Assembly: GCA_965231015.1 (NCBI GenBank)
Contig: OZ246408.1
Location: 147,755 to 211,754 of the forward strand
From: an uncultured Gammaproteobacteria bacterium
Lineage (GTDB): Bacteria > Patescibacteriota > Patescibacteriia > UBA9934 > CAZDDW01
Length of the DNA stretch: 64,000 nt
Reading direction: 5' to 3'
How positions within the stretch are numbered: position 1 is the stretch's first letter; each line of letters starts with the position of its first letter. The notes below the pieces were generated by a model that was given only the letters and a program-made list of their open reading frames with translations, was not told where the DNA came from and did not search any database. This document shows, in pieces, positions 1 to 17,242 of this stretch. A program made the translations under genes and the position numbers.

Positions 1-2837
1 CTCCGAAGGGAGATTATGTTTTTTATGATGGGCCACCGTTTGCTACCGGACTCCCGCACTACGGGCATATTGTGGCCAGTATATTGAAAGACGTGGTGCC
101 ACGCTACTGGACCATGAAGGGTTACCGCGTGGAACGCGTTTGGGGTTGGGATTGTCATGGTTTGCCGATTGAGAACATCGTTGAAAAGGAAATGGGCTCT
201 AAGAGTAAGGCTGACATTGAAGCGGCTGGTGTGGGTGAGTTTAATGAAAGTTGTCGAACCAAGGTTTTAAAGTATGTTGAGGATTGGAAAGTGGTGATCC
301 GCCGGCTGGGTCGTTGGGTTAACATGGATGACGCTTATAAAACTATGGACCTCGGTTACATGGAGTCGATCTGGTGGGTCTTTAAACAGCTTTATGATAA
401 GGGCTTGATTTATGAAGGCCACCGTTCCATGCATGTTTGTCCGCGTTGTGAGACTACACTTTCGCAATCCGAAGTAGCAGAGGGTTACCGAAACGTCAAA
501 GATTTGTCAGCCACGGTCAAGCTCGAGATCGTGGATGAACCGGGGACATCGGTTCTTGCTTGGACCACGACGCCTTGGACATTAATTGGCAACGTGGCTT
601 TGGCTGTCGGTAAAAATATTGATTATGTGAAGGTTGAATTAGTGACAAAAGATGGGGTTCCATCAAAACATGTAGTTAATTCTACTGGTGATGGTCAGAT
701 TCGTCGTGTTAACGTAGAAAATTTTATTCTGGCAAAAGACCGTCTCGAAGAAGTTTTTGGTGACTATGACTATAACATAATAGATGAGTTCAAAGGAAAG
801 AAACTCGTCGGCAAGAGCTATAAACCGTTGTTTTATTATTACGCTAATGATGAGAGTCTTGAAAACCGCAAGAATGGTTGGCAGATTTACGCGGCTAACT
901 TTGTTTCAACTGAAGAAGGAACCGGTGTGGTGCACATTGCACCTGGCTTTGGTGAAGACGACATGCAGCTTGGAGTTGAAAAAAACTTGCCATTTATTCA
1001 ACATGTAAAACTAAACGGTGACTTTGCTGATGAGGTAACTGATTTTAAAGGCCTTAACGTTAAACCAGCCGACGACAGAATGGCGACCGATGTAGAAATC
1101 ATTAAGTGTTTGGCCGGTAAAGGAACCCTGTTTGCCAAGGCTAAGTATGAACACAGCTATCCGCACTGTTGGCGGTGCGATACTCCGCTTTTGAACTATG
1201 CCACGTCTAGCATGTTTGTGGCGGTCACTAAAATGAAGGACGAACTATTAAAGAAAGCCAAGGAAATCAATTGGTCACCGGAACATATTAAGGACGGTCG
1301 GTTTGGTAAGTGGCTCGAAGGCGCGCGCGACTGGTCAATTTCTCGTCAGCGTTATTGGGCGAGTGTAATTCCGATTTGGTGCTGTGAATGTGGAAAAAAG
1401 AAAGTGATTGGATCCGTGACTGAGCTCGAGGAGTTGTCAGGAACTAAAGTAACTGACTTGCACAAGCATGTCGTGGATGAAATCACGTTTCCGTGTCAGT
1501 GCGGTAAGACCATGCACCGCGTGCCGGACGTTTTGGACTGTTGGTTTGAGTCGGGTAGTATGCCGTACGCGCAAATGCATTATCCGTTTGAGAACAAAGA
1601 GAAGTTCGAAAATAATTTTCCGGCCGAGTATATTGCTGAAGGGGCTGACCAAACCCGTTGTTGGTTTTACTACTTGCACGTGCTTTCAACCGGAGTGATG
1701 AATAAAACCGCCTATAAGAACGTTATTGTGAATGGAATCGTGTTGGCAGAAGACGGGAAGAAGATGGCCAAGAAGTTGCAGAACTATCCTGACCCAAGTT
1801 TGATTTTTGACCAGTACGGAGCAGACGCTTTACGTTATTACTTGTGCACGTCCCCGGTGATGCGAGCCGATACACTTTGTTTTGCCGAACGTGAAGTAGA
1901 TGAGGTGGTTAAGAAGGTGTTGAACATGGTTTCGAATGTGAATCGGTTCTATCAGCAGTACGAAGGCAAGCTCGAGCTGTTGGACGAACCAAATTCTGAC
2001 AATGTACTCGATGCCTGGATTTTAGCTCGGCTCAATGAACTTGTAGCTGAAACAACTCAAGGAATGGATAATTACGATTTGGTGGCTGCGGCTCGACCAG
2101 TTCGAGACTTTATCGATGACCTTTCAACCTGGTGGTTGCGCCGTAGTCGAAATCGATTCAAGACTGAAGGGTTTGATGCTCAAGCTGCTGTAACAAATTT
2201 GCGTTACGTGTTGCTTGAACTTTCTAAGGTCATGGCTCCATTCATACCGTTTACCGCGGAAATGATTTATCAGGACGTAAACGGTCCGGCTGAATCAGTG
2301 CATCTTGATGAGTGGCCAGAAGTAAATGGTCAGTTTGAGGCCGAAGAGGTTTTGAAGAATATGGAAGAGGTACGGCGAGTCGTGAGTGAGGGATTGCAAG
2401 TTCGCGAGAAGACAGGAATTGCGGTGAAGCAAGCTTTGAATTTGATGAAAGTAAGTGGTGCTCGGGATCTTGAGGACGAATATTTGGCTTTGATCGCAGA
2501 AGAAGTGAATGTAAAACAGGTCTTAATTGATCCGTCCGGAGATTTTGGGGTTGAACTTGATACTGAAATTACACCAGAGCTGGCGCGCGAAGGTTTGGCT
2601 CGTGAAATCGTACGCAAGGTAAATGGAATGCGTAAGGAAGCTGAGCTGACGATTGAAGATAAAATCGAACTGTACGTCTTTGGGGAGGATGAAGTGATGA
2701 AGACGTTGACCGAGCATGGTGAGGCGATCCAGTCTGGTACCATCGCCATTAGTTTACATGAAGAAAAACCAAGCACAGCTAACGCTACCGAGTTCAAAGT
2801 GGGAGACGTTACAGTTTGGGTTGGGTTTAAGCATTAA
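1..2837 (+). CDS. ileS: isoleucyl-tRNA synthetase, 5'-truncated by window edge (frame continues upstream from position 3: ...PPFATGLPHYGHI HIGH motif)
   Basis: Class I aaRS motifs: HYGH(I), GWDCHGLPIE, KMAKK (KMSKS variant). About 920 aa. The reading frame is open to the window start. Confidence 0.9.
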   Translation, partial: PKGDYVFYDGPPFATGLPHYGHIVASILKDVVPRYWTMKGYRVERVWGWDCHGLPIENIVEKEMGSKSKADIEAAGVGEFNESCRTKVLKYVEDWKVVIRRLGRWVNMDDAYKTMDLGYMESIWWVFKQLYDKGLIYEGHRSMHVCPRCETTLSQSEVAEGYRNVKDLSATVKLEIVDEPGTSVLAWTTTPWTLIGNVALAVGKNIDYVKVELVTKDGVPSKHVVNSTGDGQIRRVNVENFILAKDRLEEVFGDYDYNIIDEFKGKKLVGKSYKPLFYYYANDESLENRKNGWQIYAANFVSTEEGTGVVHIAPGFGEDDMQLGVEKNLPFIQHVKLNGDFADEVTDFKGLNVKPADDRMATDVEIIKCLAGKGTLFAKAKYEHSYPHCWRCDTPLLNYATSSMFVAVTKMKDELLKKAKEINWSPEHIKDGRFGKWLEGARDWSISRQRYWASVIPIWCCECGKKKVIGSVTELEELSGTKVTDLHKHVVDEITFPCQCGKTMHRVPDVLDCWFESGSMPYAQMHYPFENKEKFENNFPAEYIAEGADQTRCWFYYLHVLSTGVMNKTAYKNVIVNGIVLAEDGKKMAKKLQNYPDPSLIFDQYGADALRYYLCTSPVMRADTLCFAEREVDEVVKKVLNMVSNVNRFYQQYEGKLELLDEPNSDNVLDAWILARLNELVAETTQGMDNYDLVAAARPVRDFIDDLSTWWLRRSRNRFKTEGFDAQAAVTNLRYVLLELSKVMAPFIPFTAEMIYQDVNGPAESVHLDEWPEVNGQFEAEEVLKNMEEVRRVVSEGLQVREKTGIAVKQALNLMKVSGARDLEDEYLALIAEEVNVKQVLIDPSGDFGVELDTEITPELAREGLAREIVRKVNGMRKEAELTIEDKIELYVFGEDEVMKTLTEHGEAIQSGTIAISLHEEKPSTANATEFKVGDVTVWVGFKH

Positions 2838-2903
2838 AATCCGAAATCAGAATATCGAAATCCGAAACGTTTTGAATTTCTTATTTCGTGCTTTGAGTTT
2901 ATT

Positions 2904-3761
2904 ATGTTGGATCGTCAGAATTGCTTATTAATAGTTCCCGTGAATGACGAGGAAGCCTTTTTGATTGCCGAGATTGGAGAGAAGATTGGGATGCAAGTGT
3001 ATCGGTCGAGTCAAGAACATGGCGCGAAGTTAGAAGATGAAACAGGGATTATGGATGTTCTTGAATGTAGGGGCGAACGGCCGTTCGCCCATGTGATCAT
3101 TGTAGAAATGCCGGGGGTTGAGATCGAGAAAAGGATAAAGGATAAAGGACGATTTTTGCATATCATTGACCATCACCAGTACAACGATTTAGACCGGGCT
3201 CATGATAAAGACGGGAATGCTCTGCCAAGTTCACTGCACCAGTTCCTCGAGCTTGCAGAGATATCGGACTCTGAACTCGAGCAACTCGGTTACGATCCGC
3301 GACTGGTTCACGGAATCGGATATTGGGATGCTGGATATTTTTGGGGGTTGTTGGACGCTGGGTACTCGCGCGAGGAGATTGACCGGGTGGAGGAATATAA
3401 GAATGAACTCGGGGCGAAGATTCCTGGGCGGTTGCCGAGTAAGGAGGCTCGTGATGTGGCCGAGAAGGCTTGGAAGGCCAGGGAAGCTTGGAAGGACTTT
3501 CAGATCGTAGTGTCGGATGATCCGGATACATACATTCGTTCGTTGGTTTCTCGGTTGAGCGCTCGGGAGTACTGGAAACCCATGCCAATGATCATTGTTG
3601 AACGAGCCGGAAAGAGGATTTATGTTCAGGAATCACCTCGAACTCGAGATTTGTTTGAGCATTTTGGAGGGTTCACCTTTGGCTCGGACCGGAATTGGGG
3701 GTATGATAATGAGGAGGAGGTAAGAATAACGTTGGGGAGAGTAAAAGAATTTTTAAAATGA
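2904..3761 (+). CDS. hypothetical protein (contains a DHH tripeptide; no confident family)
   Basis: 285-aa ORF with host-like GC. It contains the 24-bp palindrome gtaggggcgaacggccgttcgccc at 3063-3086, encoding ECRGERPFAH. Confidence 0.5.
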   Translation: MLDRQNCLLIVPVNDEEAFLIAEIGEKIGMQVYRSSQEHGAKLEDETGIMDVLECRGERPFAHVIIVEMPGVEIEKRIKDKGRFLHIIDHHQYNDLDRAHDKDGNALPSSLHQFLELAEISDSELEQLGYDPRLVHGIGYWDAGYFWGLLDAGYSREEIDRVEEYKNELGAKIPGRLPSKEARDVAEKAWKAREAWKDFQIVVSDDPDTYIRSLVSRLSAREYWKPMPMIIVERAGKRIYVQESPRTRDLFEHFGGFTFGSDRNWGYDNEEEVRITLGRVKEFLK

Positions 3762-3762
3762 T

Positions 3763-5016
3763 ATGTCAGAAAGAGAAGGATACAAACCAAATATTGAAAA
3801 AATTGAGCACGGTGATCAAACAGAGCTTGGTCGCAGGTTAAAGGATGTTAAGGATAACCAAGAGTTAGTTAATGAGTTAGTAAAGCTGCGAGGTTCAGGG
3901 GAGATTAATGATTTGTCTCCGTCCGAACAGCGTGATCTGATAGATCGGGTTGTGGCTTGGTATTCGGAAAATTTGACTCAAGGAAAGGTTGATGGCTTTG
4001 ATGGTGCGATTATGGTCAATGGTCTATTTATGCCTTCCCGGCGTTCATACAAAGATAAGGATATTTTGGATGAGTATGCTAGCATGATGCCTGAAATATG
4101 GCTTCAATATCCCGAAGCTGCTCGCGAGTTATCTAATTTATTAGATCAAGATGCCCAGGTGGTTAACCCTGATGTGTATTTGGAATCTTTGGGAAAAATT
4201 TTTCGACAGCCGGGTCTGCCGCCTGATGCACTAACAGGTGCCGTGGCCGGTTTATCTTATCAGGCGAGTTTCGGTTTGATGCCTTTTCTTGAAAAAAGAA
4301 TGGACAATCTTGACGAGTTAGAGGTGGAGCAAGCCTCTTCTTTACTGTCTGTGTTAAACGCCACGTCTTCATACGGAGAAAATTTTGGTTTTTCAGAACA
4401 GTCAGCAGAGAAAATGGAAAGTATGTTGGAAGAGTTTCCTGAAAAAACCAACTCGGCTTTGTTAAAACGAAAGGCCGAGGCTATTTTGGAACAACGGTCT
4501 TCTGGGGGTGGTTTGCGATTTGATACTGAAGATATTCGAAATTGGATGGCTAATGATCGGGATACCTTTGATTATATTGATGAAGATAGGATTGAGGAGA
4601 TGTCGGACGATGAGCTATGTGATGAATTTGAATATGTTTTTAATCAAACTGCACATATTTTTCGTGAATACCTAATTGATAAAAAACGTGTGAAAATGGA
4701 ATCCCCGTATGGCACTGACCAGATTGATATTCACAGGTTGCAGCGGAGTAATGTTGGCGTGGTTCCAGTATCAAAAGAATACTACGGAGTTTATGATCTC
4801 AACGGTAAACTTATTGGCATGTTGAATAAAGAAAATGAAAAAGAAGTATATCAAGCCGAAGAGATGATTCATTTCGGTGATTTACCGATGATCGGTATTT
4901 CAGATGATTTGAATAGTGAGCAACGTGAGTATCGAATGCAGGCTCAACGAGATTATTCCATGTTGTTGGACAATAACCTCTTGGATGGTTTAGAAAAGAT
5001 TACTGTTTTTCAGTAA
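3763..5016 (+). CDS. hypothetical protein
   Basis: 417-aa ORF tightly packed after the upstream gene. No recognisable motif. Confidence 0.5.
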   Translation: MSEREGYKPNIEKIEHGDQTELGRRLKDVKDNQELVNELVKLRGSGEINDLSPSEQRDLIDRVVAWYSENLTQGKVDGFDGAIMVNGLFMPSRRSYKDKDILDEYASMMPEIWLQYPEAARELSNLLDQDAQVVNPDVYLESLGKIFRQPGLPPDALTGAVAGLSYQASFGLMPFLEKRMDNLDELEVEQASSLLSVLNATSSYGENFGFSEQSAEKMESMLEEFPEKTNSALLKRKAEAILEQRSSGGGLRFDTEDIRNWMANDRDTFDYIDEDRIEEMSDDELCDEFEYVFNQTAHIFREYLIDKKRVKMESPYGTDQIDIHRLQRSNVGVVPVSKEYYGVYDLNGKLIGMLNKENEKEVYQAEEMIHFGDLPMIGISDDLNSEQREYRMQAQRDYSMLLDNNLLDGLEKITVFQ

Positions 5017-5048
5017 GAGAATTAAGTACTCGAGAACAGATTTGGTTT

Positions 5049-6062
5049 ATGGCTTCACTTCGAGAAATTTCACCAAAGGAAGAAAAAGAAATCATGGAAT
5101 TTACAAAAAAATACGGCCTGGATGGAGCCCGGACTTTTCTTTCTTGTGAATACGGAGATGAATTCAGAGACACTGTTTTAAAGATTGATGAACGCATGGA
5201 CCGGGAAACCGCAGAATTGGTCTTTGCTCGGTATGGAGAGGTGGTGCAAGCGGCGCAAAATGTGGTTTCTGAAATAGAGGATTATCTTGGCTCGTCTGCC
5301 AAGGAGCAACTTGATCCGACCAAGTTGGAACAGAAGCTACTAGAAAAAGCCAAGGATTTTTTGGTTGATGTATCGGCTCAAGATTCTAAAAGGTTAGACG
5401 ATAAACTGAAAAGTTTTACTGCTGACGTGCAGCTTTTTGGAAATATTTTCAGAAGCTTGTTCAAAGGAAAGGAAAACCCGGATCTATCGATGGTTAAAAA
5501 TGTCGAGGTGGTCAGCCGGGAGGCGCAAGAAATCGATCAGAAGGACCAAGCAGCCATGCTCGATATTGCTGACAAGAACTGGCAAGAGATTCCGCGTATG
5601 CATGATTTTGTGGTCGGGTTGTTAAAGAAAAGCGTGGAAAATCCCAAGGAAGGTTCTGAGTTTAAGATTATGAAAAAAGATAATGACGTTCTGGCTTTTA
5701 TGCGGGTGGACAAGGGAGAAGATGGGTCAGCTCATATTGGATCCGTCAATGTGAATCCGAAATACCGCGGTTCAGCCATTGGTGAAGTCATGCTTAATCA
5801 GGCCGTGGAGCAGTTGGCAGCAGATCATGTAGTTAAACTTGAGGCTTATCCTGGTTCTTTGATTACGGTGGTTTACTGTGAAAAGTTTGGTTTTGTGGTG
5901 GATGGGGTGCATGAGATTCCGGTCGAAGGTGATGAACCGTTGTATGGATTCAACATGAAGCGAGATAATAAAGCGAATGAAAAGTATACAGCTCGAGCAG
6001 AACAGTTGGATCCTGAAAAACTGGTCAAGTTATCACAGAAACCAAACGAGGCCAAAAGTTAG
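5049..6062 (+). CDS. hypothetical protein with C-terminal GNAT N-acetyltransferase domain
   Basis: C-terminal YRGSAIGEVMLNQAV, a GNAT motif A-like pattern (R/Q-x-x-G-x-G/A). Confidence 0.55.
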   Translation: MASLREISPKEEKEIMEFTKKYGLDGARTFLSCEYGDEFRDTVLKIDERMDRETAELVFARYGEVVQAAQNVVSEIEDYLGSSAKEQLDPTKLEQKLLEKAKDFLVDVSAQDSKRLDDKLKSFTADVQLFGNIFRSLFKGKENPDLSMVKNVEVVSREAQEIDQKDQAAMLDIADKNWQEIPRMHDFVVGLLKKSVENPKEGSEFKIMKKDNDVLAFMRVDKGEDGSAHIGSVNVNPKYRGSAIGEVMLNQAVEQLAADHVVKLEAYPGSLITVVYCEKFGFVVDGVHEIPVEGDEPLYGFNMKRDNKANEKYTARAEQLDPEKLVKLSQKPNEAKS

Positions 6063-6149
6063 GCCTTGAGATTAAGAAATTTGATTTACGAAAGGTTTAC
6101 GATGAAATGATTGCCTCGGTTAAGGCAGAAACGGAAGAAGGAGAAGTGG

Positions 6150-6968
6150 CTAGCCGGTTGTTTGCTGATCCGAATGATCCTGATTCTCGAGTTGTGGTTT
6201 TTGAGAAGGCAAGTTAGAACAAGTAAACAATGCTTTAATGGTTGAGCGCATGGTTTTAGCCAAGCTCGGACTTTCAATAATCACGGCAATCATATTTTCG
6301 TGATCCATAAAGGCAACATTGTTTCCAAAAACACTAATATCCCCGGTAAAGGGGTATTTTTGTTCATCAATGACTGAAGCCTGACGCAGTTCAGACTGAC
6401 TTCGGCTCATCATTTCGGATACTCGTTTACTTGAGGAGCTCATCACAGCGAAAACCGGAATTTGGGCGGCAACGCGCTGTTTTAAATACGAGCCACGTAA
6501 CCACTTGAGCAGTGTGGTTTCTTGAGCTGGCGGGCCGATTAAGCTGTAAATCGGCTGGCCGGTTTTAAGAATGGTTTGGTACACCTCTTTCATGCCGCTG
6601 ACCCCTTCAAAGACTCGAAAAGCCGGTTTTTTGGTAATTAAGTTGAAATGGCTCTTTAGGGAAGGAAGAGTAGAATCGAGCTGGGAATATAAATTTTGCA
6701 CAGATTCAAGCCGGGCTTTAGCTAAACCACGCAAACGCTCCGGATCAACTGCTCGAAAGACAGTCTTTTTGCCAGTTTCTTCAATAACCAGCCCTTTTTC
6801 TTTTAAAGACGTTAAAACATTATAGGTATTGCCGCGGCCTAAATCAGTGAGTTTTACGAGTTCTGCTGCTGGTTTTGGTCCATATTCAAGCAAAACCTCG
6901 TATATTTGAACTTCTGAGCTGTTTAGACCAAGCTCTAAAAGGATAGGGAAATGGATTTCATGAGGCAT
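6150..6968 (-). CDS. TrmB-family transcriptional regulator
   Basis: N-terminal winged HTH ELGLNSSEVQIYEVLLEYGPKPAAELVKLTDLGRGNTYNVLTSLKEKGLV, typical of TrmB (PF01978). Confidence 0.7.
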   Translation of the reverse strand: MPHEIHFPILLELGLNSSEVQIYEVLLEYGPKPAAELVKLTDLGRGNTYNVLTSLKEKGLVIEETGKKTVFRAVDPERLRGLAKARLESVQNLYSQLDSTLPSLKSHFNLITKKPAFRVFEGVSGMKEVYQTILKTGQPIYSLIGPPAQETTLLKWLRGSYLKQRVAAQIPVFAVMSSSSKRVSEMMSRSQSELRQASVIDEQKYPFTGDISVFGNNVAFMDHENMIAVIIESPSLAKTMRSTIKALFTCSNLPSQKPQLENQDHSDQQTTG

Positions 6969-6981
6969 ATGGAGGGAGAAG

Positions 6982-7005
6982 GTAAAAGGTAAAGGGTAAA
7001 AGGGG
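6982..7005. repeat. purine-rich tract ggtaaaaggtaaagggtaaaagg; complementary to the pyrimidine-rich tract at 7376-7401 across the Avd-like gene
   Basis: Direct reading of the sequence. A related pair occurs at 9173-9188 and 9207-9234. Confidence 0.7.
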
Positions 7006-7086
7006 CTAAGTTTGCTGGGATTTTCTTAGGGCGGCAAGGGAAATCCAGAGTTGTTCGGTTAAAGCTCGAGTTTCGTTCCAGGAAGT

Positions 7087-7362
7087 TTAAGTGATGTATC
7101 CCTGATTAAGGGCGATTTTTAAGCAGGCGTCGGTTTCTGTTAGTGAGCCAAGAGCAATATTGAGAAAGCGTACGAATTCGGGTTTGGTGTTTCTGGAGCT
7201 CTCTTCAGCTAAATTAAGGTAAATTGAGATTGAAGCCCGGCGAATTTGGCTCGTTAGACCGAATTTTTCCTCGTCCGGAAAGCCTTTACTTAGGGAATAC
7301 ACTTGATTGACATAGTCTAAAATGACCTGGTTAACCCTTAGTTGTTCATATCGAAATTCCAT
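7087..7362 (-). CDS. four-helix-bundle protein of the Avd / 23S-rRNA-intervening-sequence protein family
   Basis: 91 aa. Sequence EFRYEQLRVNQVILDYV...FGLTSQIRRASISIYLNLAEE...FVRFLNIALGSLTETDACLKIALNQGY matches the four-helix-bundle family (TIGR02436/PF05635). No rRNA is present in the window. Confidence 0.7.
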   Translation of the reverse strand: MEFRYEQLRVNQVILDYVNQVYSLSKGFPDEEKFGLTSQIRRASISIYLNLAEESSRNTKPEFVRFLNIALGSLTETDACLKIALNQGYIT

Positions 7363-7375
7363 ATTTTGATTTCTT

Positions 7376-7401
7376 TTACCTCTTTCCTTTTTCCCTTTAC
7401 C
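7376..7401. repeat. pyrimidine-rich tract ttacctctttcctttttccctttacc; partner of 6982-7005
   Basis: In the minus-strand mRNA it becomes a purine-rich 5'UTR that can pair with the pyrimidine-rich 3'UTR, enclosing the ORF in a long stem. Confidence 0.6.
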
Positions 7402-7499
7402 ATCATAATATCATGAAAACGTCACTTAGTCAATGACAGGAGCTGTGGATAAGTCTGGGCTAAAATAAGCCAATTTTGAGGAATAGTGCCACTGACCCC

Positions 7500-7528
7500 T
7501 TGACAAGTTTTGTGTTTTGTGCTATACT
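7500..7528 (+). promoter_or_regulatory. sigma70-type promoter TTGACA-N17-TGcTATACT
   Basis: ccccTTGACAagttttgtgttttgtgcTATACTgg with an extended -10. It is divergent from the Avd-like gene. Confidence 0.7.
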
Positions 7529-7534
7529 GGTGTT

Positions 7535-7725
7535 AACAAGATGAGAAAAGGAAACGAAGAGCCTGGACTCATCAAGTACCTTCAAGAACAATATAGAGCG
7601 AGAGAGCCCGAGCCTGGGGTTATAAGGCATAAGTGAATGGATACATTTATAGATTGATAGATGTATACATTGACTAGACGGATTTAATTATCTCTTGCCG
7701 AGTTAGTTAGATCCGTCTTTTTTAT
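7535..7725 (+). ncRNA. small RNA module copy 1 (promoter-to-terminator, ~190 nt), unclassified
   Basis: It ends in a rho-independent terminator: gacggatttaattatctcttgccgagttagttagatccgtc followed by tttttt. It shares the motifs agagagccc(g/t)..ggg and tgtatacattga with copy 2. No conserved ORF. Confidence 0.55.
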
Positions 7726-8468
7726 AAGACAACAGTTCATTACTAGCATTTACGAATATCCGCAGTGATGACCGGCCCGGTCGGGCACGACAACCGACAG
7801 CGAGGCCATACGGAGGAGCGAGAGAGATCACCACGAATATGCGTAAGTGCATCTTACAAACCCAACTTCATGGGTTCTAACGAGTGCGCTACGCCTGGGA
7901 TCCCCAATCGGGTCGAGCCCAAGCGGAGCAGTCCTTAGAACCAGAGAGGATCAAGCGAGAGACAGAAAAACCTCTATTCGCGGGAAGTACCTTACAATTG
8001 AATACCAAATCGAAGAAGCAGGATGTAGATAAACGAACGAGAGAGATCTCTTGTCTAGGTTCTGCTTCCAGAGATCATGGATTCTAAAGTTATCCAAAAG
8101 GAAACTGTGGAGCATGACTCAATACATAACAGTGAAGTCGGGTCAGGGATTAATTACCAATCGTGATCTTATTATATAGATCGGCCTAGCGATCCGACTT
8201 CAATACTTTTTATGAATACAATTCTATTATCAACTTACATTCCTTTCATGATGGTCGTGGGAACGGTCAGTGTGGTTGGAGCGTGAGTCTTCCATAGCTC
8301 GCAAGGGAGAGAGCTTGCGAGTCTTGGAAGCCTCTGAATCAGATCCGTTATGACGGATCTGATTCAGGGAGAACGCTGCGAGGAAATGATTCTTCGCAGT
8401 GGATTAAAACGGTGCCCGTATGGGCGTTGGTGGCGTAATGCTACAACGGCCTTGAGGGGCTGCCGCAA

Positions 8469-8492
8469 AGCGTAGGGGCGAACGGCTGTTCG
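8469..8492. repeat. near-perfect 24-bp palindrome gtaggggcgaacggctgttcgccc (second copy of the 3063-3086 element)
   Basis: It differs by one base from the copy inside ORF 2904..3761. It sits about 10 bp upstream of the SD of the first GC-rich ORF. Confidence 0.8.
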
Positions 8493-8503
8493 CCCTGGAG
8501 GAG

Positions 8504-9040
8504 ATGACGATGACGACGACCACGACGAAGACAACGAAGACGACGAAGACGACGACGACGGCGCTGCCGCCGATTTCTCGACCGGCGGAGCGGCTGGAGG
8601 CCCTGCGGGGTCGTCTGATCTCGACACCCCGTGGTCCGTCCACGGGGATCGACCTCGGCCATGGCCGTCAGGTCCTGACGGAGGTCGTGTCCGTCCGACA
8701 AACGGACGGAGAGCTGGTCACCGGCCGTGATGCCCGTCACGGCCGGACCGTGCCGCTCGCGCGGCACATCGAATTCCTCCGTCGCAAGATCGCGGCGGAG
8801 AAGAAGCAGGCGGCAGCAGGCCGCCGCGGCCAGCAGGTCACTCGCCGCCGGCCGGGCAAGACCGCCCGTCGGCGGGAAGCGGCCGCCGCGGCCCGTCGCG
8901 AGGCAGAGGCCAAGGCAGAGGCCAAGGCCGCCGCGGCCCGTCGCGAGGCCGCGGAGCAGGCGGCCCGCGAGGCGGGCTGGAACTCGGCCGCGGAGCAGGC
9001 CGAGTGGGAGGTCCTCCTCACAGAAGAGCAGGCCGCCTAG
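8504..9040 (+). CDS. hypothetical protein, GC-rich island ORF 1
   Basis: Strong SD ggaggag before ATG. N-terminal Thr/Lys triplet repeat (MTMTTTTTKTTKTTKTT), Arg/Ala-rich coiled-coil-like C-terminus. GC ~68%. Confidence 0.5.
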   Translation: MTMTTTTTKTTKTTKTTTTALPPISRPAERLEALRGRLISTPRGPSTGIDLGHGRQVLTEVVSVRQTDGELVTGRDARHGRTVPLARHIEFLRRKIAAEKKQAAAGRRGQQVTRRRPGKTARRREAAAAARREAEAKAEAKAAAARREAAEQAAREAGWNSAAEQAEWEVLLTEEQAA

Positions 9041-9113
9041 CCCGCCCCCCTGATCCGTGCTTACGGGGCGATTGAAGCACGGCGGCCAAGGGACCGTTTC
9101 CCTCGCACTCGAA

Positions 9114-9150
9114 CCCCGAGCGGACGCGACGCACATCGCTTCGCTCGGGG
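9114..9150. repeat. conserved nested-hairpin motif copy 1 (ccccgagcgg-acgcgacgcacatcgc-...cgctcgggg)
   Basis: One of three near-identical ~37-nt elements, each lying 70-305 bp past the stop of a GC-rich ORF. Confidence 0.75.
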
Positions 9151-9172
9151 CCTCGATTGAGAATAGGAAATA

Positions 9173-9234
9173 GGTAAAAGGTAAAAGGATCTGAAAATCT
9201 GATTTTCTTACCTCTAACCCTTTACCCTTTCCCC
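9173..9234. repeat. hairpin built from ggtaaaaggtaaaagg / cctctaaccctttaccctttcccc tracts (same family as the tracts flanking the Avd-like gene)
   Basis: Direct reading. The central gaaaatc-t-gattttc is itself a palindrome. Confidence 0.6.
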
Positions 9235-9352
9235 TTCTGAATTGAGGCAACCGGGAAGTTTCTCTCGGTGACTCAAAGTGAAAACAAAACTCGGATTTAG
9301 CCACCCGGGTTTGAGAATGATCAGGTTGGCGACCTGAAAACGAGGAGAAAAG

Positions 9353-10372
9353 ATGTTCCAAATGACTATCAACGTTGCGGTCATGTTCTCGAAGTTCTTC
9401 AGCCCCGCCGACCGCGAGGCGGTGCTGGAGGCCATCCCGGCCGACGCCAAGAAGGTGCTGTTCGTGGACACGGGCGCCACGCCCGTGCTGGCGGACACGA
9501 TCCGCGTGCTCTTCGAGCGCGGGATCGAGGTGGTCGTCCGAGACCACCACCGTGGCGAGGGCAGGACGCCCGAGGCCGCGGAGGCGATCGAGAAGATCCT
9601 GGGCGACAACGCCCGGATCGTCTCGCGCGATGAGGCACCGGCGTGTGCCTCTCTCGTCGAGATCGCCGAGTTCGCCGAGGTCGGGACGGTCATCGTGGCC
9701 GATCCGGACCCGGACGGCCTGACCGCGGCCATGAAGGCGGCCGGCGTGACCTACGACGGCCTGGACCGCGACGCCGCGGTGCTCGACGGGCCGCGGTCCG
9801 AGCAGACCGCTGACCGGCTCTCGGATCTGGCGGTCCTGTTGACGAAGGGGATGGCGACCTTGCCCCCCTTCAACCCCAAGCGGCCGGAGGGGGGCGAGAA
9901 GGCGAAGAGCGAACACTTCGGAGAGTTTGTTGCCGCCACCCAGGGCGACGAGCAGGCCGTCGAGGCCTTGACCAAGAAGGTCGAGGTCTACGAGGTGCAG
10001 GTCTCGGAGGCCGAGCGCCTGGCCACCCGCGCCGAACAGATCCTGCCCGGCGTCTGGCTGGTCGACTGCCGCACCGGCGGCAGGTTCGACCTGGCCACGC
10101 TGGCCAAGGAGATCGAGTCCCGCCCCGGCTGCATCTGCACGGTGCAGATCAAGGGTATGGGTCCGATCGCAGCGGCCTGCGGGGGGATCCAGTACTCCTT
10201 GGCGGTGGTGAAGAGCCATCAGGCCGAGCTGGATCTCCGGAGCCTGGTCCCGGACGGCGCCGAGTCGAGCCCGGCAGCCGGACTCATCTCGAACACCTCC
10301 TTCCTCCTGCATGTGAGCCAGGAGAGGTGGATCCAGGAGATCGAGCCGGCGCTGCGCGCCCGGCTCGGCTAG
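9353..10372 (+). CDS. hypothetical protein, GC-rich island ORF 2
   Basis: SD aggagaaaag before ATG. 339 aa, GC ~67%. Contains DHH, DPDPD and EHFGEF segments. No confident family. Confidence 0.5.
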   Translation: MFQMTINVAVMFSKFFSPADREAVLEAIPADAKKVLFVDTGATPVLADTIRVLFERGIEVVVRDHHRGEGRTPEAAEAIEKILGDNARIVSRDEAPACASLVEIAEFAEVGTVIVADPDPDGLTAAMKAAGVTYDGLDRDAAVLDGPRSEQTADRLSDLAVLLTKGMATLPPFNPKRPEGGEKAKSEHFGEFVAATQGDEQAVEALTKKVEVYEVQVSEAERLATRAEQILPGVWLVDCRTGGRFDLATLAKEIESRPGCICTVQIKGMGPIAAACGGIQYSLAVVKSHQAELDLRSLVPDGAESSPAAGLISNTSFLLHVSQERWIQEIEPALRARLG

Positions 10373-10673
10373 TCCGGTTCACCTTTTCACGCGCAAGGGG
10401 TCGCGGGGAAAAGGGAAAGAAGAATGCTGCCGGTGCTGTGAAGCCGAAAGGTGGAGCTAGGCAGTAAAACCCCCCCAATCCTACAGATAGAGAGGATCTT
10501 CTATGATTGTAGGAAAACGCCACCGGTTAAGGCGTGATAATACAAATACCGGCTAATGGCCTTCGCCAAGGCTACACCGACGTATCGTGAACTTGTGGCG
10601 ACAAGTTATACGACAGTTGGTCTCTGCCAGGACCGGCCCGCAAGAGCTATATCTTGCATGCACTCGAGACATT

Positions 10674-10710
10674 CCCCGAGCGGACGCGACGCACATCGCA
10701 CCGTTCGGGG
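10674..10710. repeat. conserved nested-hairpin motif copy 2
   Basis: ccccgagcggacgcgacgcacatcgcaccgttcgggg, 302 bp after the ORF 2 stop. Confidence 0.75.
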
Positions 10711-11541
10711 ACTCGACCGAAGTCCGGAAATTTTCCGAACTTCAGTTGAGGAGAGTTAAACCAACACGCAGAGCAAACGGGCTCTGGTTAGGCCTCTTTT
10801 GGTCGCGGTTCTGTGGTGGTTCCGCGCCCCGGAGGTCTAACCGGAACCCCTTTGCCAGGGGTTGTTTATGTTTTGCTTCTAAAGTCCGTGAAATATTTCA
10901 TAGCCTTTGGAAGCGCCGTGAGGGAAATTGTTCCTTCGCGGTGTGGGGCAAGTGCTGATGCCCATTCATTCCAATTCAGCACAACTCTCATCGCCCGAAT
11001 ATCCTCTATAAGTGATAGTGTGCCTGTCATGAAATGGGGAGAATAGGGGTGATGAGATTGGAGAGCCATGAGAAAAATCATGGCCGGATGGTTGCGCAGC
11101 TCGAGCGGCATTCTTGTCGCGGGCTGTCTGCCATACGGACCGGTCCTGTGGGCGACATTGCTCACCTGTTTGGACCCCGCGTGCCGGCACCACGAGCCGG
11201 CAGCGCGGATCGTCACCCGCAAGTAGGTGATGATATCCGTAAGTCGCGATGCCCGGTGCGTTATCCGGGGAGGTCCTTTTCAGGGCCGGTGGCCGACGAG
11301 CCAAAGCGGGGCACCGCATGAAAAGCAGGGGGCGAGTCGGTTGCACACCGACCGCTCCCTTTCCACATCAGCGCGGAGACTCTAGCTCTCTTGCTGGCCG
11401 CCTTGTTTCCTAAGAGGCGTAACAGCCGCCGCTCTGATGTGGCCGCGTGAACATGCGTTCGCGCGGAAAACAGCCCCCGCCTATATCCGGAACGGGTCTG
11501 GATGAAATGGCAAGGGCAAACCGCATGAAAGGAGAAACAAC

Positions 11542-13773
11542 ATGCGGTGTTACACATGGTCCGGGGGCGAGCTCCGAGAGGGGCTCGCTCTGACCCAGGA
11601 CGATCGGCTCGGGCCGGTTGTGTTCCTGGGCGAGGCCGGGCGCGGCCGACGCTACGAAAAGGTAGCGCTCGGTCGGCGCGCTCCGGCCGAGGTGATCAAC
11701 GGGCGCGTGCTCGACGCGCACCCGGCCAAGATCACCCTGCCACCCCGGGACGGGAAGCCCGAGAAGAGCTTCTACGTCCTGGAGAAGCCGCGCCAGCACG
11801 GCGGTGACGCCGTGCTCGTGCGGGTGTACACGTACACGTCGTACATCCGCGGCGGGCGGGGATGTTGGCGGAGGATCGCCGGTGAGCCCATGACCCTGAT
11901 CTCCGGCTACGGCGCCTTCGGCGCTGCCGGCCGGGTCGGGAGCTGGGACGACGGGCTGATCGTCCTCCGCCACGGCGACGTGTTGCGCGTGTCCCCTTCG
12001 CGGGGACAGCACAGCTACGCGCTGTGGCTCGAGGCCGGCCGGCCGGTCACGGCCACCTGGCAGGACTACGAGAACCTCCAGGCGGTCGAGAAGGCCCAGC
12101 AGGTGCTCGAGCAGGCGGCGGAGACGCCCGAGGATCTCGATGTGATCTTCGGCCAGATGCGGACGTTCACGTTCGCGGGTGGCCAGATCACGGCGGGGCT
12201 AAAGGTGACGAAGGGCGCCACCGGCCCGGTCATCGCGTTCGGCGAGTCCGGACGCGGGCGTTCGCTCGTCGAGGTGCCCCTGGTCGGCCTCGACGTCACC
12301 AAGCAGAGCGACAACTACGGTCGCGAGAGCGAAGTGGTCGAGACGGCCAGCGTGGTCAAGCTCGACGAGAAGGCGGCGCCGGCGCGGTACAGCTGGGAGC
12401 AGCCCAAGGTCAATACGATCTACGGGCTCACCCAGACGGGCAAGTCGGAGGACGCCTTCCTCGTCCGCGTGTCGACCGCCGGCCCCTACACCAAGGGGAC
12501 CACCGGCACCGTCGACCCGTGGAAGGGCTCGCCCGTGGTCATCACCTCGGGCAGCGGTGCCCACGGTGACGCCGGCCGCGTCGGCGGGTGGGACGACGTC
12601 CTGCTCGTCGTGCGGGAGGGTGACGTGCTCTTCGTCCGCTCCGAAGGGGGCTACAAGAGCGCGGGTCCGTGGGCGCTGTACGTCGAGGGCGGCGAGCTCA
12701 AGGTCGAGTTCTGGCAGGAGTGGAAGCTCCGCGACGCCAAGAACGACCCCGAGTTCTACGTCGCCCAGCGCACCGCGCCGATGGGCCACACCCCCTCGGA
12801 GTGGGTCGGCCAGGTCGTGACGGTCTGCTACCTCTCGCAGGGGCAGTCCGGCTGTGGCCCGACCAAGACCTACCTCGAGGACCGCGCCACGGGCGAGCTC
12901 GTCCGGATCGGGCAGGAGTCGGTCGTCCTCAACCTCGGTTGGGACGGCAAGGACTACCACGAGTCCACCATCGGTGGTTCGTGGGTCAAGCTCGAGAAGG
13001 ACAAGCAGGTCCGGAAGCTCGACGGTGAGGAGGCGGAGAAGCGCAAGCAGATCCGCACCGAGGCCGAGGAGTTGAAGGACAAGGCCATCCTGGCCACGAA
13101 GCAGAGCCACTTCGAGCTGGCCGAGGCCACCTTGCGCCGCCAGGTGCAGGAGATCGCGCAGGAGTCAGGGTTCGACACCATGTCCACCGAGGGCTGGTAC
13201 GACTCCCTCACCTCCTGGGTCGAGAAGGCCAAGGCCGTGGTCGAGAAATGGCAGGCGACCGAGGCCGAGCTCAAGACGCTCGAGGAGCGCAAGAGCTCGG
13301 GTGAGGTGCTCGTGGACTTCGGCGGCCACTTCCGCGTGATGGGTGCCACCGGCAACGCCCAGTACTGGGTGATCATGCCGGACGGCTCCGAGCGCGACCC
13401 CGACGAGGTGGAGTACCGAAAGCGGTATACCTCGGAGGGGAGCAAAAAGTGGCGGCTGGTCGGTCCCGGGGAGCTGGCGATTTCGTGGTTCAAGGCCTAC
13501 ACGGCCGCGGACCACGAGTTTGTCGTCGACAAGCTCCCCGAGGGTGGTTGCACCGCGGAACAGCTCGTCACGGTTGAGCGCCTCGAGCGCGAGATCGACG
13601 AGCGATTCCGTGGCAGTGTCGGTTGCTCCGGGCAGTCTAGCCCGGACATCGGCCGTGGCTGGGATCTACAGCCAGCCCCCACCCCCACCGCCCCCGTGGT
13701 CGAGTCTACCGGGACGTCCGACTCTTCGGAGCCGGATCTCTCGAGTCTGCTCGGCAAGTGGGGCCGCCGCTAA
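11542..13773 (+). CDS. hypothetical protein with internal duplicated domain, GC-rich island ORF 3
   Basis: SD aaaggag before ATG. 743 aa. Two homologous segments (GYGAFGAAGRVGSWDDGLIVLRHGDVLRV and GSGAHGDAGRVGGWDDVLLVVREGDVLFV). Coiled-coil-like central region. Confidence 0.55.
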   Translation: MRCYTWSGGELREGLALTQDDRLGPVVFLGEAGRGRRYEKVALGRRAPAEVINGRVLDAHPAKITLPPRDGKPEKSFYVLEKPRQHGGDAVLVRVYTYTSYIRGGRGCWRRIAGEPMTLISGYGAFGAAGRVGSWDDGLIVLRHGDVLRVSPSRGQHSYALWLEAGRPVTATWQDYENLQAVEKAQQVLEQAAETPEDLDVIFGQMRTFTFAGGQITAGLKVTKGATGPVIAFGESGRGRSLVEVPLVGLDVTKQSDNYGRESEVVETASVVKLDEKAAPARYSWEQPKVNTIYGLTQTGKSEDAFLVRVSTAGPYTKGTTGTVDPWKGSPVVITSGSGAHGDAGRVGGWDDVLLVVREGDVLFVRSEGGYKSAGPWALYVEGGELKVEFWQEWKLRDAKNDPEFYVAQRTAPMGHTPSEWVGQVVTVCYLSQGQSGCGPTKTYLEDRATGELVRIGQESVVLNLGWDGKDYHESTIGGSWVKLEKDKQVRKLDGEEAEKRKQIRTEAEELKDKAILATKQSHFELAEATLRRQVQEIAQESGFDTMSTEGWYDSLTSWVEKAKAVVEKWQATEAELKTLEERKSSGEVLVDFGGHFRVMGATGNAQYWVIMPDGSERDPDEVEYRKRYTSEGSKKWRLVGPGELAISWFKAYTAADHEFVVDKLPEGGCTAEQLVTVERLEREIDERFRGSVGCSGQSSPDIGRGWDLQPAPTPTAPVVESTGTSDSSEPDLSSLLGKWGRR

Positions 13774-13943
13774 CCGAATCCCGTTCGGGCCCATGACGGC
13801 TCGGACGGGAACTATTCTTTCGGCCGAAAACTAAGAAGAGTAATGCCGTAAACTATGCTCTTCTGCGGACTATTCGTCCGTCCGCGCAAGCGGTAACAGA
13901 ATCGGCACTCCCCGGGCCGCCGCAAGGCCCGGTGCACATACAT

Positions 13944-13981
13944 CCCCGAGCGGTTGCGATTGCACATCGCGCCGCTCGGGG
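13944..13981. repeat. conserved nested-hairpin motif copy 3
   Basis: ccccgagcggttgcgattgcacatcgcgccgctcgggg, 170 bp after the ORF 3 stop. The loop shows coupled ac-to-tt and ac-to-at substitutions relative to copies 1 and 2. Confidence 0.75.
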
Positions 13982-14031
13982 CCTTAACTAAGATTGGGAA
14001 GTGATTCACAATCTTTAATAGGAGGTGAGAC

Positions 14032-14421
14032 TTGATCAGATTAACTCTGACGAGCGGACCGTACGCGGAACGCTCACGAAGCTTCTCGGACAAGATCGCG
14101 GATGACGGATCCGTTGTTGACGCGAACGAGCTTCTTGGATCTCTCGTCAACCACGGCTGGTCCTGGGAGATAGATCTTTCTTCTGCTAGCGCGGAAGAAT
14201 CCTTCATCTGGGGACGAGCCGACATGGTCGCGCGCATTGTTCGGGCGGTCATGGAGCGAAGACCGGTCTGGGTTTTGACCCGCCGGTTCGAGCCCATCGG
14301 TGATCCGTCCACGATCGTGGGAATGATCGAGGACGAGATCGTCGAAAGCGGGCGACTTGTTTACGTGGCTTCGGATGACGAACGAGGTGTTGTCATCGGG
14401 GCGCACGGGTACGAGGAATGA
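14032..14421 (+). CDS. hypothetical protein, GC-rich island ORF 4 (TTG start)
   Basis: SD aggagg 6 nt before a TTG start codon. 129 aa. Followed by the hairpin cccaacgttc...acgttggg at 14436-14472. Confidence 0.4.
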   Translation: MIRLTLTSGPYAERSRSFSDKIADDGSVVDANELLGSLVNHGWSWEIDLSSASAEESFIWGRADMVARIVRAVMERRPVWVLTRRFEPIGDPSTIVGMIEDEIVESGRLVYVASDDERGVVIGAHGYEE

Positions 14422-14579
14422 CCCGCCTTAACTCGCCCAACGTTCTTGAGGAGGATGAACGTTGGGCAAATCCACAAGTTCAGCAAATCAAATATCTGGC
14501 GGATGAGCCCTGAGCTCTCTCGCCAGGAGGAATTTGTCATTTGTTTGGCTCTGCTGGACTTGTGGATTTGAGCTTAATT

Positions 14580-14632
14580 TAGCCTAAATATCTTTGTCAG
14601 GTCTTGACAAACTTAAAAAAATATGGTATAGT
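14580..14632 (+). promoter_or_regulatory. promoter of the tagcctaaa...TCTTGACAAA-N17-TGgTATAGT family
   Basis: tagcctaaatatctttgtcaggtcTTGACAaacttaaaaaaatatggTATAGT. The upstream half matches the repeats flanking the DGR at 45365 and 48405. Confidence 0.7.
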
Positions 14633-14638
14633 GTGAGC

Positions 14639-14801
14639 GTTACAATCAAAGAGTTGAGAGAGCCCTGGTCCAGGGAAAAGGACAAATGCAAGAAACGGTA
14701 AATGTATACATGTATAAATTGATACATTGATACATTGATACATCTGTTCTTGCGAAACCGGATTTGGTTACCTCTCACGAGTTAATTAAATCCGGTTTTT
14801 T
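14639..14801 (+). ncRNA. small RNA module copy 2 (~160 nt), unclassified
   Basis: Terminator aaaccggattt...aaatccggtt plus ttttt. Contains gagagagccctggtccaggg and three tandem gatacatt units plus tgtatacat. Confidence 0.55.
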
Positions 14802-15770: not shown

Positions 15771-15890
15771 TAAGAGCTTGATACAATTGAATCGAGCGTT
15801 TGGGTGAACATTCACACATGGGTATCACTTAAATGGTTAAAACAAAAAACCCCACAAAGTGAGAGTTTGTTCTCCATAATAAGAATTTTA

Positions 15891-16199
15891 TCAACTCTGC
15901 GGAAACGGTTCGAGTTCTAAGATTCGCCGAGCGTCATCCTCAGTAATCACAGAACGTTCGACCAGGATTTCAAGAGTGGCAGCTAATTTACGATCTTCCT
16001 TGCGAACCAATACTACAAGATCACCACGTAAGTCAGAGAGTTTTTCATCCAAGTAGTCCTTAGTGACCATAGTTGACTCAACCTTGTTTAGTCTTGATTC
16101 AACACCATCAAAACGATCGTCAACATGAGTTGAGAAATCGTTAATGGCCTCTAAAATTTCATTTTTTACAGCATCTTCCATACAAAGATAAAATATCAT
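15891..16199 (-). CDS. hypothetical protein (host-like GC)
   Basis: 102-aa ORF. Low confidence. Confidence 0.4.
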   Translation of the reverse strand: MIFYLCMEDAVKNEILEAINDFSTHVDDRFDGVESRLNKVESTMVTKDYLDEKLSDLRGDLVVLVRKEDRKLAATLEILVERSVITEDDARRILELEPFPQS

Positions 16200-16225
16200 G
16201 GTTCATTGATTTCGACAAGAAATCA

Positions 16226-17188: not shown

Positions 17189-17242
17189 CTCACCACAACA
17201 CCGACATTCCGTCGGTCCCGCCCTCTGTCACTTCTCGACATC

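Follow-up and report, generated by a model that had tools for sequence, protein, structure and literature searches.

The DNA described here is a stretch of 64,000 nucleotides, referred to below as the window (contig OZ246408.1, positions 147,755 to 211,754 of the forward strand), from an uncultured bacterium assigned by GTDB to the Patescibacteriota. Two related modules, each made of a promoter, a short structured RNA and an intrinsic terminator, are found at the two ends of a GC-rich gene cluster (the island). The first of them, copy 1, is transcribed away from a TrmB-like regulator gene, and its RNA apparently represents an undescribed family of leader RNAs of Patescibacteria. The features of the copy-1 region are listed below; R1 is a covariance model of the terminator, and P1, S2 and P3 are names given to hairpins.

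6150-6968, minus strand: gene for a TrmB/TrmBL2-like regulator (Pfam TrmB, E 5.8e-17)
7087-7362, minus strand: four-helix-bundle gene (23S rRNA IVS protein family; PF05635, E 7e-28), 'Avd-like' in a first-pass annotation of this DNA
7430-7475, unstranded: operator-like DNA with TCAATGACAGG, TGTGGATAAGT (7444-7454) and GGGCTAAAATAAGCC (7457-7471), blocks found family-wide upstream of the -35 element
7500-7528, plus strand: copy-1 promoter, TTGACA-N17-TGcTATACT, score 11/12
7535-7723, plus strand: copy-1 RNA domain (fold z = -6.2; R1 match of 55 bits)
7540-7573, plus strand: hairpin P1, loop CGAAGAG, with compensatory changes across loci
7576-7586, plus strand: boxA-like GUACCUUCAAG
7600-7606, plus strand: GAGAGAG box
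7612-7628, plus strand: hairpin S2, with compensatory changes across loci
7633-7674, plus strand: variable repeat hairpin P3
7676-7718, plus strand: terminator hairpin, apex CUCUU at 7692-7696, U-run at 7718-7723

Promoters were searched for with a consensus sigma-70 scan covering positions 6000-17500. The top two matches in the 11.5 kb scanned are the two module promoters, at 7500-7528 and at 14604-14632 (TTGACA-N17-TGgTATAGT), both on the plus strand; each scores 11/12 and has a TG extended -10. The transcribed units start about 7 nt 3' of each promoter. Their predicted folding energies are -58.2 kcal/mol for copy 1 (7535-7725; z = -6.2 against dinucleotide shuffles) and -51.4 kcal/mol for copy 2 (14639-14803; z = -5.0 in the same test). 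Both units end in a hairpin of 18-19 bp and -22 kcal/mol (7676-7718 and 14755-14798), followed by six U. The promoters and the hairpin plus U-run terminators described in the first-pass annotation are thus confirmed at both sites.

A blastn comparison of the two copies gave a single significant alignment, between 7636-7728 and 14717-14807 (93 nt, 74% identity, E 5e-13), which corresponds to the 8-nt repeat region and the terminator. R1 identified exactly two sites in the window, scoring 55 bits (copy 1) and 54 bits (copy 2), so that the proposed homology of the modules holds; no further copies were found in the 64 kb by pattern search, blastn or covariance model. The tandem 8-nt units, also reported earlier, were recovered by Tandem Repeats Finder as arrays of 4.8 copies each, at 7640-7678 and 14706-14743. 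The string GAGAGAGCCC, on which a shared internal hairpin had been drawn, is indeed present in both copies (at 7600 and 14656), but the stem backed by covariation is S2 (GCCU/AGGC, 7612-7628 in copy 1; GUCC/GGAC, 14668-14683 in copy 2) and not the CCC...GGG pairing. The latter is invariant across the family and might add a pseudoknot stem. An independent Logan assembly shows the same arrangement, and a second one its left junction, which excludes an assembly chimera.

In order to compare the region among genomes, loci containing homologs of the regulator (6150-6968) were taken from Logan and ENA assemblies, GTDB genomes and JGI metagenomes. The homologs fetched are 28-87% identical to the window protein, and all sensibly labelled source genomes are Patescibacteria (Candidatus Uhrbacteria and "Patescibacteria group"). 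Members of the copy-1 RNA family were recognised at about 27 related Patescibacteria loci; in nearly all of the loci fetched, the RNA is encoded divergently from the regulator gene. The full architecture could be read upstream of the regulators in the loci numbered L003, L006, L008, L011-L025 and L031-L035, and the 9-mer GAGAGAGCC alone marks the RNA at 15 loci. The RNA is found also in L136 and L138, which were reached independently, through a 743-aa protein encoded in the island. The elements of the family follow each other in this order:

1, operator-like DNA: a TGTCA..TGACA inverted repeat, TGTGGATAA, a GGCTAA-N2-TTAGCC inverted repeat and TGCCAC
2, promoter, TTGACA-17-TGnTAnnnT
3, 5' end of the RNA, CAAG(A/C)UGA(U)GAG
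4, hairpin P1, with loop CGA(A/G)(A/G)A
5, U-rich single strand, GUUCYUUAMAAC
6, invariant GAGAGAG box
7, hairpin S2, with loop GGGGUWAWA
8, a hairpin varying in length and sequence
9, a long hairpin with AUCUCUC apex, then a U-rich tract

Every family member has an equivalent of the copy-1 promoter, as well as a U-rich tract 3' of the covarying stem. On a larger scale, the succession of regulator gene, operator-like DNA with promoter, RNA domain, long leader and GC-rich genes is constant in about 27 loci, the regulators of which share only 30-87% identity. Where the window has 8-nt repeats in the variable hairpin, its closest relative, L003 (87% identity of the regulator), carries GUAGAAAG repeats; in the remaining loci, the hairpin is unrelated or missing. 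These 8-nt units and palindromes, first listed among the features shared by the two copies, are from this comparison best described as species-specific filler of the variable hairpin, and not as a feature of the family.

Constraint on the RNA structure was evaluated helix by helix. In the terminator alignment (A6, 12 sequences/loci), 90.8% of the cells are paired, compared with 29-46% when the partner strand is slid; 14 of the 19 pairs are changed on both sides, and the observed covariation score was reached by none of 500 shuffles. S2 occurs as seven distinct, perfectly complementary stems (GCCU/AGGC, GCC/GGC, CAUCC/GGAUG, GUCC/GGAC, CCUAC/GUAGG, GUGCC/GGCAC and GGCC/GGCU), and eight distinct inner stems are found for P1 among the loci. 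These two helices were checked in a hand-registered table, the MAFFT alignment of the box-S2 segment having mis-registered the helix. The 17 strong matches to R1 score 43-68 bits in sense orientation, against 25-48 bits in antisense orientation; in the window, the values are 55 and 54 bits on the plus strand versus 27 and 24 bits on the minus strand. Loci with a strong R1 score contain exactly one match each, except for the window, which has two. In the divergent members (L013-L015 and L032-L036) the R1 score is weak or nil, and the RNA was recognised by reading the sequence. Since P1, the GAGAGAG box, S2 and the terminator apex are conserved or covarying in about 27 loci, the similarity does not reduce to promoter and terminator boilerplate, the outcome that the first-pass annotation had named as fatal to its proposal.

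The assignment to no known family made there stands as well. Neither module nor leader matched any Rfam 15 family, in gathering or E-value mode, whether in the window or in seven related loci, and nothing relevant appeared in any of them at relaxed thresholds (E <= 5-10); no description of the RNA or of the GC-rich cluster was found in the literature searched. A few specific candidates were discarded. A viral origin finds no support in IMG/VR, from which the exact hairpin pattern is absent; the 14-mer GAGCGAGAGAGCCC has 99 matches there, but the terminator model was found nearby in 0 of 80 loci searched, and these are probably chance matches. A hammerhead ribozyme, suggested by CUGAUGAG...GAAAC at the 5' end of Uhrbacteria-type members, has no stem II and no Rfam match. 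A small antisense open reading frame (ORF) at 7460-7630, a gene call in the Logan assembly, has its start codon in the 3' arm of S2 and loses it in L003.

The regulator consists of a winged helix-turn-helix, a long helix and a C-terminal domain, and its AlphaFold2 model (pLDDT 83) matches the archaeal TrmBL2 structure 5bqt over the full length (268 columns, E 1e-14). A divergent promoter on the minus strand is located at 7433-7405. The conserved upstream blocks (7420-7475, 14520-14600 and their equivalents in all family loci) are probably operators of the TrmBL2-like regulator, and are probably shared with its own divergent promoter (7433-7405, minus strand); we infer that the regulator binds to the conserved inverted repeats.

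Gene order across the loci identifies this regulator as the conserved divergent partner of the RNA, a role for which the first-pass annotation had pointed to the Avd-like gene. The latter, which lies between the regulator and the RNA, is missing in L003 and L008 and present in L138, and is an incidental insert. It reaches 16.7 bits with the NCBIfam model of Avd from diversity-generating retroelements (DGR), the cut-off of which is 80. A DGR was rejected for the window, given this score, the lack of a reverse transcriptase among 10 ORFs scanned (0/10, 72-17188), and repeats that do not resemble template and variable repeats. A separate pair of bAvd and reverse transcriptase genes, likely a DGR, is present in L138 at 17920-19319; the module is not linked to the reverse transcriptase.

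The region downstream of the copy-1 terminator contains the following features, all of them on the plus strand:

7724-8503: ORF-free structured leader (fold z = -11.7; 80% identical to L003 over 631 nt)
7735-7745: second boxA-like motif, GUUCAUUACUA, just 3' of the terminator
7820, 7957, 8039 and 8307: GAGAGAG motifs of the leader
7874-7941: domain X (helix, GAGUGCG, hairpins, CAGUCC, helix), present in most related loci
8504-14421: GC-rich gene cluster, 60-69% GC, genes split by long structured spacers
8504-9040: island gene, 178 aa, Arg-rich
9353-10372: island gene, 339 aa, with a weak DHH/RecJ N-terminus
11542-13773: island gene, 743 aa, Patescibacteria-specific
14032-14421: island gene, 129 aa

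A conserved ORF-free leader of 0.7-2 kb is found across the family loci. The closing helix of domain X covaries (UUCUAA/UUAGAA, UGACAA/UUGUCA, UGGUAA/UUACCA, UAGUA/UACUA, UCUUA/UAAGA and UAGCAA/UUGCUA), and GAGAGAG occurs 3-7 times per leader, often on the 3' side of loops. In L008, an element of the form CGGAGC-GAGAGAG-AACUCACUUCGAAAAA is found in the spacers or 5' untranslated regions (UTRs) of successive island genes, 1513, 3740, 5994, 6951 and 7871 nt from the TrmB start on the minus strand, which suggests that GAGAGAG is reused inside the island in some lineages. No terminator-like or consensus promoter site was found by the scan from the window leader to the first island gene, and the leader runs into the GGAGGAG Shine-Dalgarno sequence of that gene (8504). 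All island genes lie on the plus strand, and no other promoter-like site was seen on this strand between 7529 and 14593 by the consensus scan, weak or non-consensus sites being outside its reach.

The segment between the two copies has a GC content of 60-69%, compared with about 44% in the rest of the window. Wherever a locus extends far enough for this to be seen, genes on the same strand likewise come after the leader, with 60-70% GC and a G+C fraction at third codon positions (GC3) of 0.7-0.9, the host side having 36-55% GC. The GC-rich cluster was seen in the window (8440-14430) and in L008, L011, L013-L023, L033, L035 and L136. Its gene content overlaps but varies among loci, including DHH-like, Csx3-like, MoxR AAA+ with vWA, DEAH helicase, AAA ATPase and 743-aa family genes. 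For the window proteins, PHROGs, PADLOC and NCBIfam searches gave only the weak DHH/RecJ matches. The 743-aa protein has 77 homolog clusters, none with a Pfam domain; all source names that bear a taxon are Patescibacteria, most sources being unnamed, and the homologs are found again downstream of a TrmB-like gene and the RNA. No PDB relative of this protein was detected by sequence, and its AlphaFold2 model (pLDDT 88), a multi-beta-domain fold, has no PDB fold match; an internal duplication links 11886-11982 to 12531-12627. Since the named homologs are from Patescibacteria only, and a syntenic cluster follows the RNA in related loci, the island is better read as a conserved lineage-specific cluster than as a recent foreign insertion, and it is apparently vertically inherited.

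Copy 2 and its surroundings contain the following features:

14520-14600, unstranded: operator-like DNA with TGTGGAT (14562-14568) and GAGCTTAATTTAGCC (14570-14584), aligning with the family-wide upstream blocks
14604-14632, plus strand: copy-2 promoter, score 11/12
14639-14801, plus strand: copy-2 RNA (fold z = -5.0; R1 match of 54 bits; S2 stem checked; 8-nt array)
5' end of copy 2, plus strand: boxA-like remnant GUUACAA, a fragment only
14656-14662, plus strand: GAGAGAG box
14668-14683, plus strand: hairpin S2, GUCC/GGAC
14688-14753, plus strand: repeat hairpin P3, with 8-nt units of the same type as in copy 1
14755-14798, plus strand: terminator hairpin, apex CUCUC, U-run to 14801
14802-15769, plus strand: ORF-free region of 970 nt (fold z = -6.9), with its own terminator

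Copy 2 lacks P1 and keeps the operator-like blocks, the promoter, the box, S2, the repeat hairpin and the terminator; by blastn, 14567-14633 matches the promoter region of L031. Since no second module was found within 10 kb at any other locus (the L003 contig ends inside the island), copy 2 is best regarded as a lineage-specific, 5'-truncated duplicate of copy 1. The bracketing of the island reported in the first-pass annotation is therefore true of this genome, but related loci have a single module, proximal to the regulator; the picture of two equivalent units is replaced by that of a family member and a truncated paralog seen only here. Duplication of an integrative-element att site was rejected, as the copies are 74% identical over 93 nt, no integrase was found in 5-17.5 kb and the relatives carry the cluster with one module.

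The region after copy 2 ends in a 14-bp hairpin (15727-15764, -27.9 kcal/mol) followed by UUUU. It contains no ORF of at least 85 aa and no Rfam match, has no homolog in any locus fetched and shows no similarity to the region after copy 1. A segment of it, 15661-15678, is complementary at 17 of 18 nt to the 5' arm of the copy-1 terminator (7670-7687; blast E 0.03-0.28), which could be chance, a relic or a trans-pairing site.

These data suggest a function for copy 1 as the promoter-proximal domain of a cis-acting attenuation/antitermination leader that gates the GC-rich cluster, a proposal to which we give an even chance of being correct. In this model, the strong sigma-70 promoter, adjacent to the operator-like DNA of the regulator, would start an RNA comprising P1, the boxA-like strand, the box, S2 and the variable hairpin, and ending at a strong intrinsic terminator with an apical CUCUC complementary to the box. 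Most polymerases would end transcription at this point, yielding an RNA of about 190 nt; those that pass would go on into the 0.8-kb structured leader and the island genes. A factor recognising the conserved single-stranded and loop motifs would promote read-through, possibly by a nut-like mechanism that depends on Nus factors. Copy 2 would be a recent duplicate of the operator, the promoter and a truncated RNA domain, bringing the 970-nt non-coding RNA under the same control. That termination at the copy-1 hairpin is partial and regulated, and that a factor acts on it, is what we infer from the arrangement of these elements.

A promoter, a leader predicted to be transcribed and a G+C-containing hairpin with U-run are all present, the hairpin covarying across 12 loci, as expected for an attenuator or leader. 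Among the functions first considered (small RNA, riboregulator or leader), the leader fits best, because conservation and covariation pass the terminator into the ORF-free region and reach genes without a consensus promoter of their own. Given how varied the downstream genes are, a general gating element is a better fit than a riboswitch for a metabolite.

The GAGAGAG box and the apical CUCUC could form 7-9 bp in every family member; in both window copies, this is the pairing predicted as long as the 3' arm of the terminator has not been transcribed. L136, L032 and L035 are the only loci with CUCUC in or beside the stem, where pairing with the box would compete with the terminator. A comparison of the box:apex duplex energy with mononucleotide shuffles was uninformative, as any purine-rich shuffle still pairs.

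A possible link to antitermination is provided by the consensus of boxA, the NusB/NusE site (GYUCUUUAANA; PMC5725501). A boxA-like GUUCYUUAMAAC closely follows P1, and a second one closely follows the terminator. Matches to this published consensus are 11/11 in L032, 10/11 in L035, L003 and L025 and 9/11 in many others; at least 11 loci score 9-11/11 at the equivalent site. Upstream of the motif, and separated from it by 2-6 nt, lies the covarying P1 hairpin, in the place of an adjacent boxB-type hairpin, and a boxB-boxA-like layout would make sense for a long, untranslated, hairpin-rich transcript. The resemblance is offered as a lead, not as a result.

Several observations weigh against the attenuation/antitermination leader. 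In most members, pairing with the box touches only the apex, which would make it a pseudoknot and not an antiterminator. The window copies show no convincing mutually exclusive antiterminator; in them, the lower 15 bp of the stem stay free, and a box:apex duplex of about -12 kcal/mol cannot outcompete a hairpin of -22 kcal/mol. Box and apex are nearly invariant, so that their pairing is not proven by covariation, and a pseudoknot within a stable, discrete RNA would explain the contact equally well. The boxA matches of copy 1 are weak (7/11 at 7576-7586, 9/11 at 7735-7745), matches of at least 9/11 occurring in these AT-rich loci at a background of 1.08 per kb. The promoter scan sees consensus sigma-70 sites only, and weaker island promoters may exist. 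Finally, there is no gene to gate behind copy 2.

The main rival is a pair of stand-alone small RNAs (sRNAs), the terminated transcripts of about 190 and 165 nt being the functional products; we consider it possible but rather unlikely. They would act in trans, for example through pairing of the exposed CUCUC loop with the many GAGAGAG motifs in the leader and island UTRs, or through titration of an RNA-binding protein, with the leader as an independent element. The combination of strong promoters and strong terminators agrees with this, as do the absence of a gene downstream of copy 2 and the conservation of the terminator apex, expected where the terminator belongs to a functional fold. GAGAGAG is repeated 3-7 times in the leaders and, in L008, is also found in the 5' UTRs of successive island genes; the gene-proximal UTRs of the window island, however, carry a different repeat and no GAGAGAG. 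Moreover, conservation of sequence and structure continues directly past the U-run, no other consensus promoter serves the island, and there is one module per locus, always in cis to a leader.

An extension of the leader proposal is that the module and the ORF-free region of 0.8-2 kb form one new, Patescibacteria-wide class of large structured RNA, with a built-in antitermination or terminator switch and further functional domains such as domain X and the GAGAGAG hairpins; this is speculative and held to be unlikely. If true, the RNA would control or work with a vertically inherited, lineage-specific cluster, the extreme GC3 of which (0.8-0.9 in genomes of 36-53% GC) is actively maintained. 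These ultra-small symbionts would then possess an RNA-centred system, so far unrecognised, that serves defence, RNA metabolism or interaction with the host.

A riboswitch for a metabolite or second messenger, with P1, the box, S2 and a pseudoknot as aptamer and the terminator as expression platform, seems improbable. The compact covarying helices, the highly conserved junction and loop nucleotides and the terminator directly 3' are what such an element would show; an H-type pseudoknot, CCC-(GA)-GCCU-GGGG-UUAUA-AGGC, is possible, and some downstream genes (DHH-like, Csx3) handle nucleotides or cyclic oligonucleotides. Yet Rfam gives no match even at E <= 5-10, the downstream genes are heterogeneous, and no alternative antiterminator helix is visible in most members. 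Copy 2, without P1 and with only a boxA-like fragment, keeps promoter and terminator all the same, and a dedicated protein regulator already adjoins the locus.

Similarly doubtful is a ribonucleoprotein in which module and leader are one large functional non-coding RNA, a structural or guide partner of the island proteins. An ORF-free stretch of 0.8-2 kb is far beyond ordinary leaders, the window leader folds with z = -11.7 and contains conserved domains, and the island encodes Patescibacteria-specific proteins, with the 743-aa protein lacking both a Pfam match and a PDB fold match (pLDDT 88). However, no recognised RNA-binding or RNA-guided domain was found among these proteins, the island genes vary among loci while the RNA is constant, and the RNA is contiguous with the Shine-Dalgarno sequence of the first gene, like a 5' UTR.

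That the modules are DNA-level elements (iterons, att sites or direct repeats of an insertion), or share boilerplate by chance, is very improbable and already largely refuted by covariation: two direct copies do flank a compositionally foreign segment, and the 8-nt tandem units and palindromes do resemble protein-binding DNA, but compensatory changes and G-U pairs keep the helices on one strand only (the 55/54 versus 27/24 bits given above), the repeats are species-specific filler of one hairpin, relatives carry the same GC-rich cluster with a single module, the signature-protein homologs with a named taxon all come from Patescibacteria, with the cluster in synteny, neither integrase nor transposase was detected between 5 and 17.5 kb, and no module was present in the IMG/VR contigs scanned.

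Compared with known systems, the copy-1 RNA most resembles, in function, promoter-proximal attenuators and nut-like antitermination leaders. With attenuators and riboswitch platforms it shares a strong promoter, a covarying RNA domain, a hairpin with U-run and same-strand genes without a consensus promoter of their own. It differs from them in having no Rfam match and no clear mutually exclusive antiterminator, in the conserved CUCUC of the terminator apex, complementary to an upstream invariant box, and in the 0.8-2 kb of conserved structured RNA between terminator and first gene. With the lambda nut site (boxA/boxB) and the rrn leader (boxB-boxA-boxC) it shares a P1 hairpin followed within a few nucleotides by a U-rich strand resembling boxA; this arrangement lies just downstream of a strong promoter and heads a long, largely untranslated, hairpin-rich unit, in which transcription would have to be protected from termination. 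Unlike in those sites, the boxA match is partial in most members (7-11/11), boxC is absent and NusB/NusE binding is hypothetical. HK022 put and Bacillus EAR are also cis-acting antitermination RNAs; neither they nor nut are known to contain a counterpart of the GAGAGAG box, S2 or a terminator with conserved loop.

Gram-positive Hfq binds (AG)n, and the (AG)3-4 tract, the U-tailed rho-independent terminator and the RNA length of 165-190 nt resemble Hfq-type sRNAs, a similarity that serves as a lead only; this RNA differs from them in being linked in cis to a conserved leader, once per locus. Type III toxin-antitoxin systems (ToxIN-like) also combine a promoter, short tandem repeats, a terminator and downstream genes, and the terminator would there set the ratio of short RNA to read-through. 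The repeats of the modules, by contrast, are 8 nt long and not about 34-36 nt, form part of the variable hairpin and differ from one species to another; this possibility was rejected, the repeats being species-specific and no match to ToxN/AbiE-like or other toxin families having been found. GOLLD, ROOL, OLE, HEARO and raiA RNAs are likewise long (0.9-2 kb here, with the module), strongly folding, ORF-free and conserved within lineages, but their Rfam models do not match, and the present RNA is contiguous with an operon and has an internal terminator. No described counterpart was found for the pair of conserved apex and invariant box, for so long a leader, or for the constant link with a TrmBL2-like regulator and a GC-rich cluster.

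A large part of bacterial diversity belongs to the Patescibacteria; their gene regulation is almost unknown, and very few of their non-coding RNAs have been described. The locus adds a widely conserved RNA, with about 27 loci, three covarying helices, four invariant motifs and an adjoining TrmBL2-like regulator. This RNA controls, or at least heads, a cluster which is compositionally alien and yet apparently vertically inherited. The upkeep of long, untranslated, hairpin-rich transcription in minimal genomes, and the role of the GC-rich cluster, become testable questions. For annotation, the island should be regarded neither as a recent foreign insertion nor as an assembly chimera.

Other repeated structures were observed in the island spacers. 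A hairpin of the form CCCCGAGCGG..GCACAUCGC..CG.UCGGGG (repeat family D1) is present in three GC-rich copies, at 9114-9152, 10674-10712 and 13945-13983, in the long spacers upstream of the island genes starting at 9353, 11542 and 14032. A long purine- and pyrimidine-rich hairpin, GGUAAAAGG...CCUUUACC, occupies the spacer segment 9160-9240; a related copy is inserted in the L003 leader (minus strand, about 460-390), as if it were a small mobile hairpin.

Elsewhere in the window, a third near-consensus promoter (TTGACA-17-TGcTATATT, 45385-45413) precedes a 5' UTR of about 140 nt and, at 45559-46470, a gene of higher GC content, which begins with ATGATGACGACG, like the island gene at 8504, and coincides with a local GC bump at 45-47 kb. 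Host features include a tRNA-Ile with UAU anticodon (52538-52612) and a class A RNase P RNA with large insertions (32492-32895, 152 bits).

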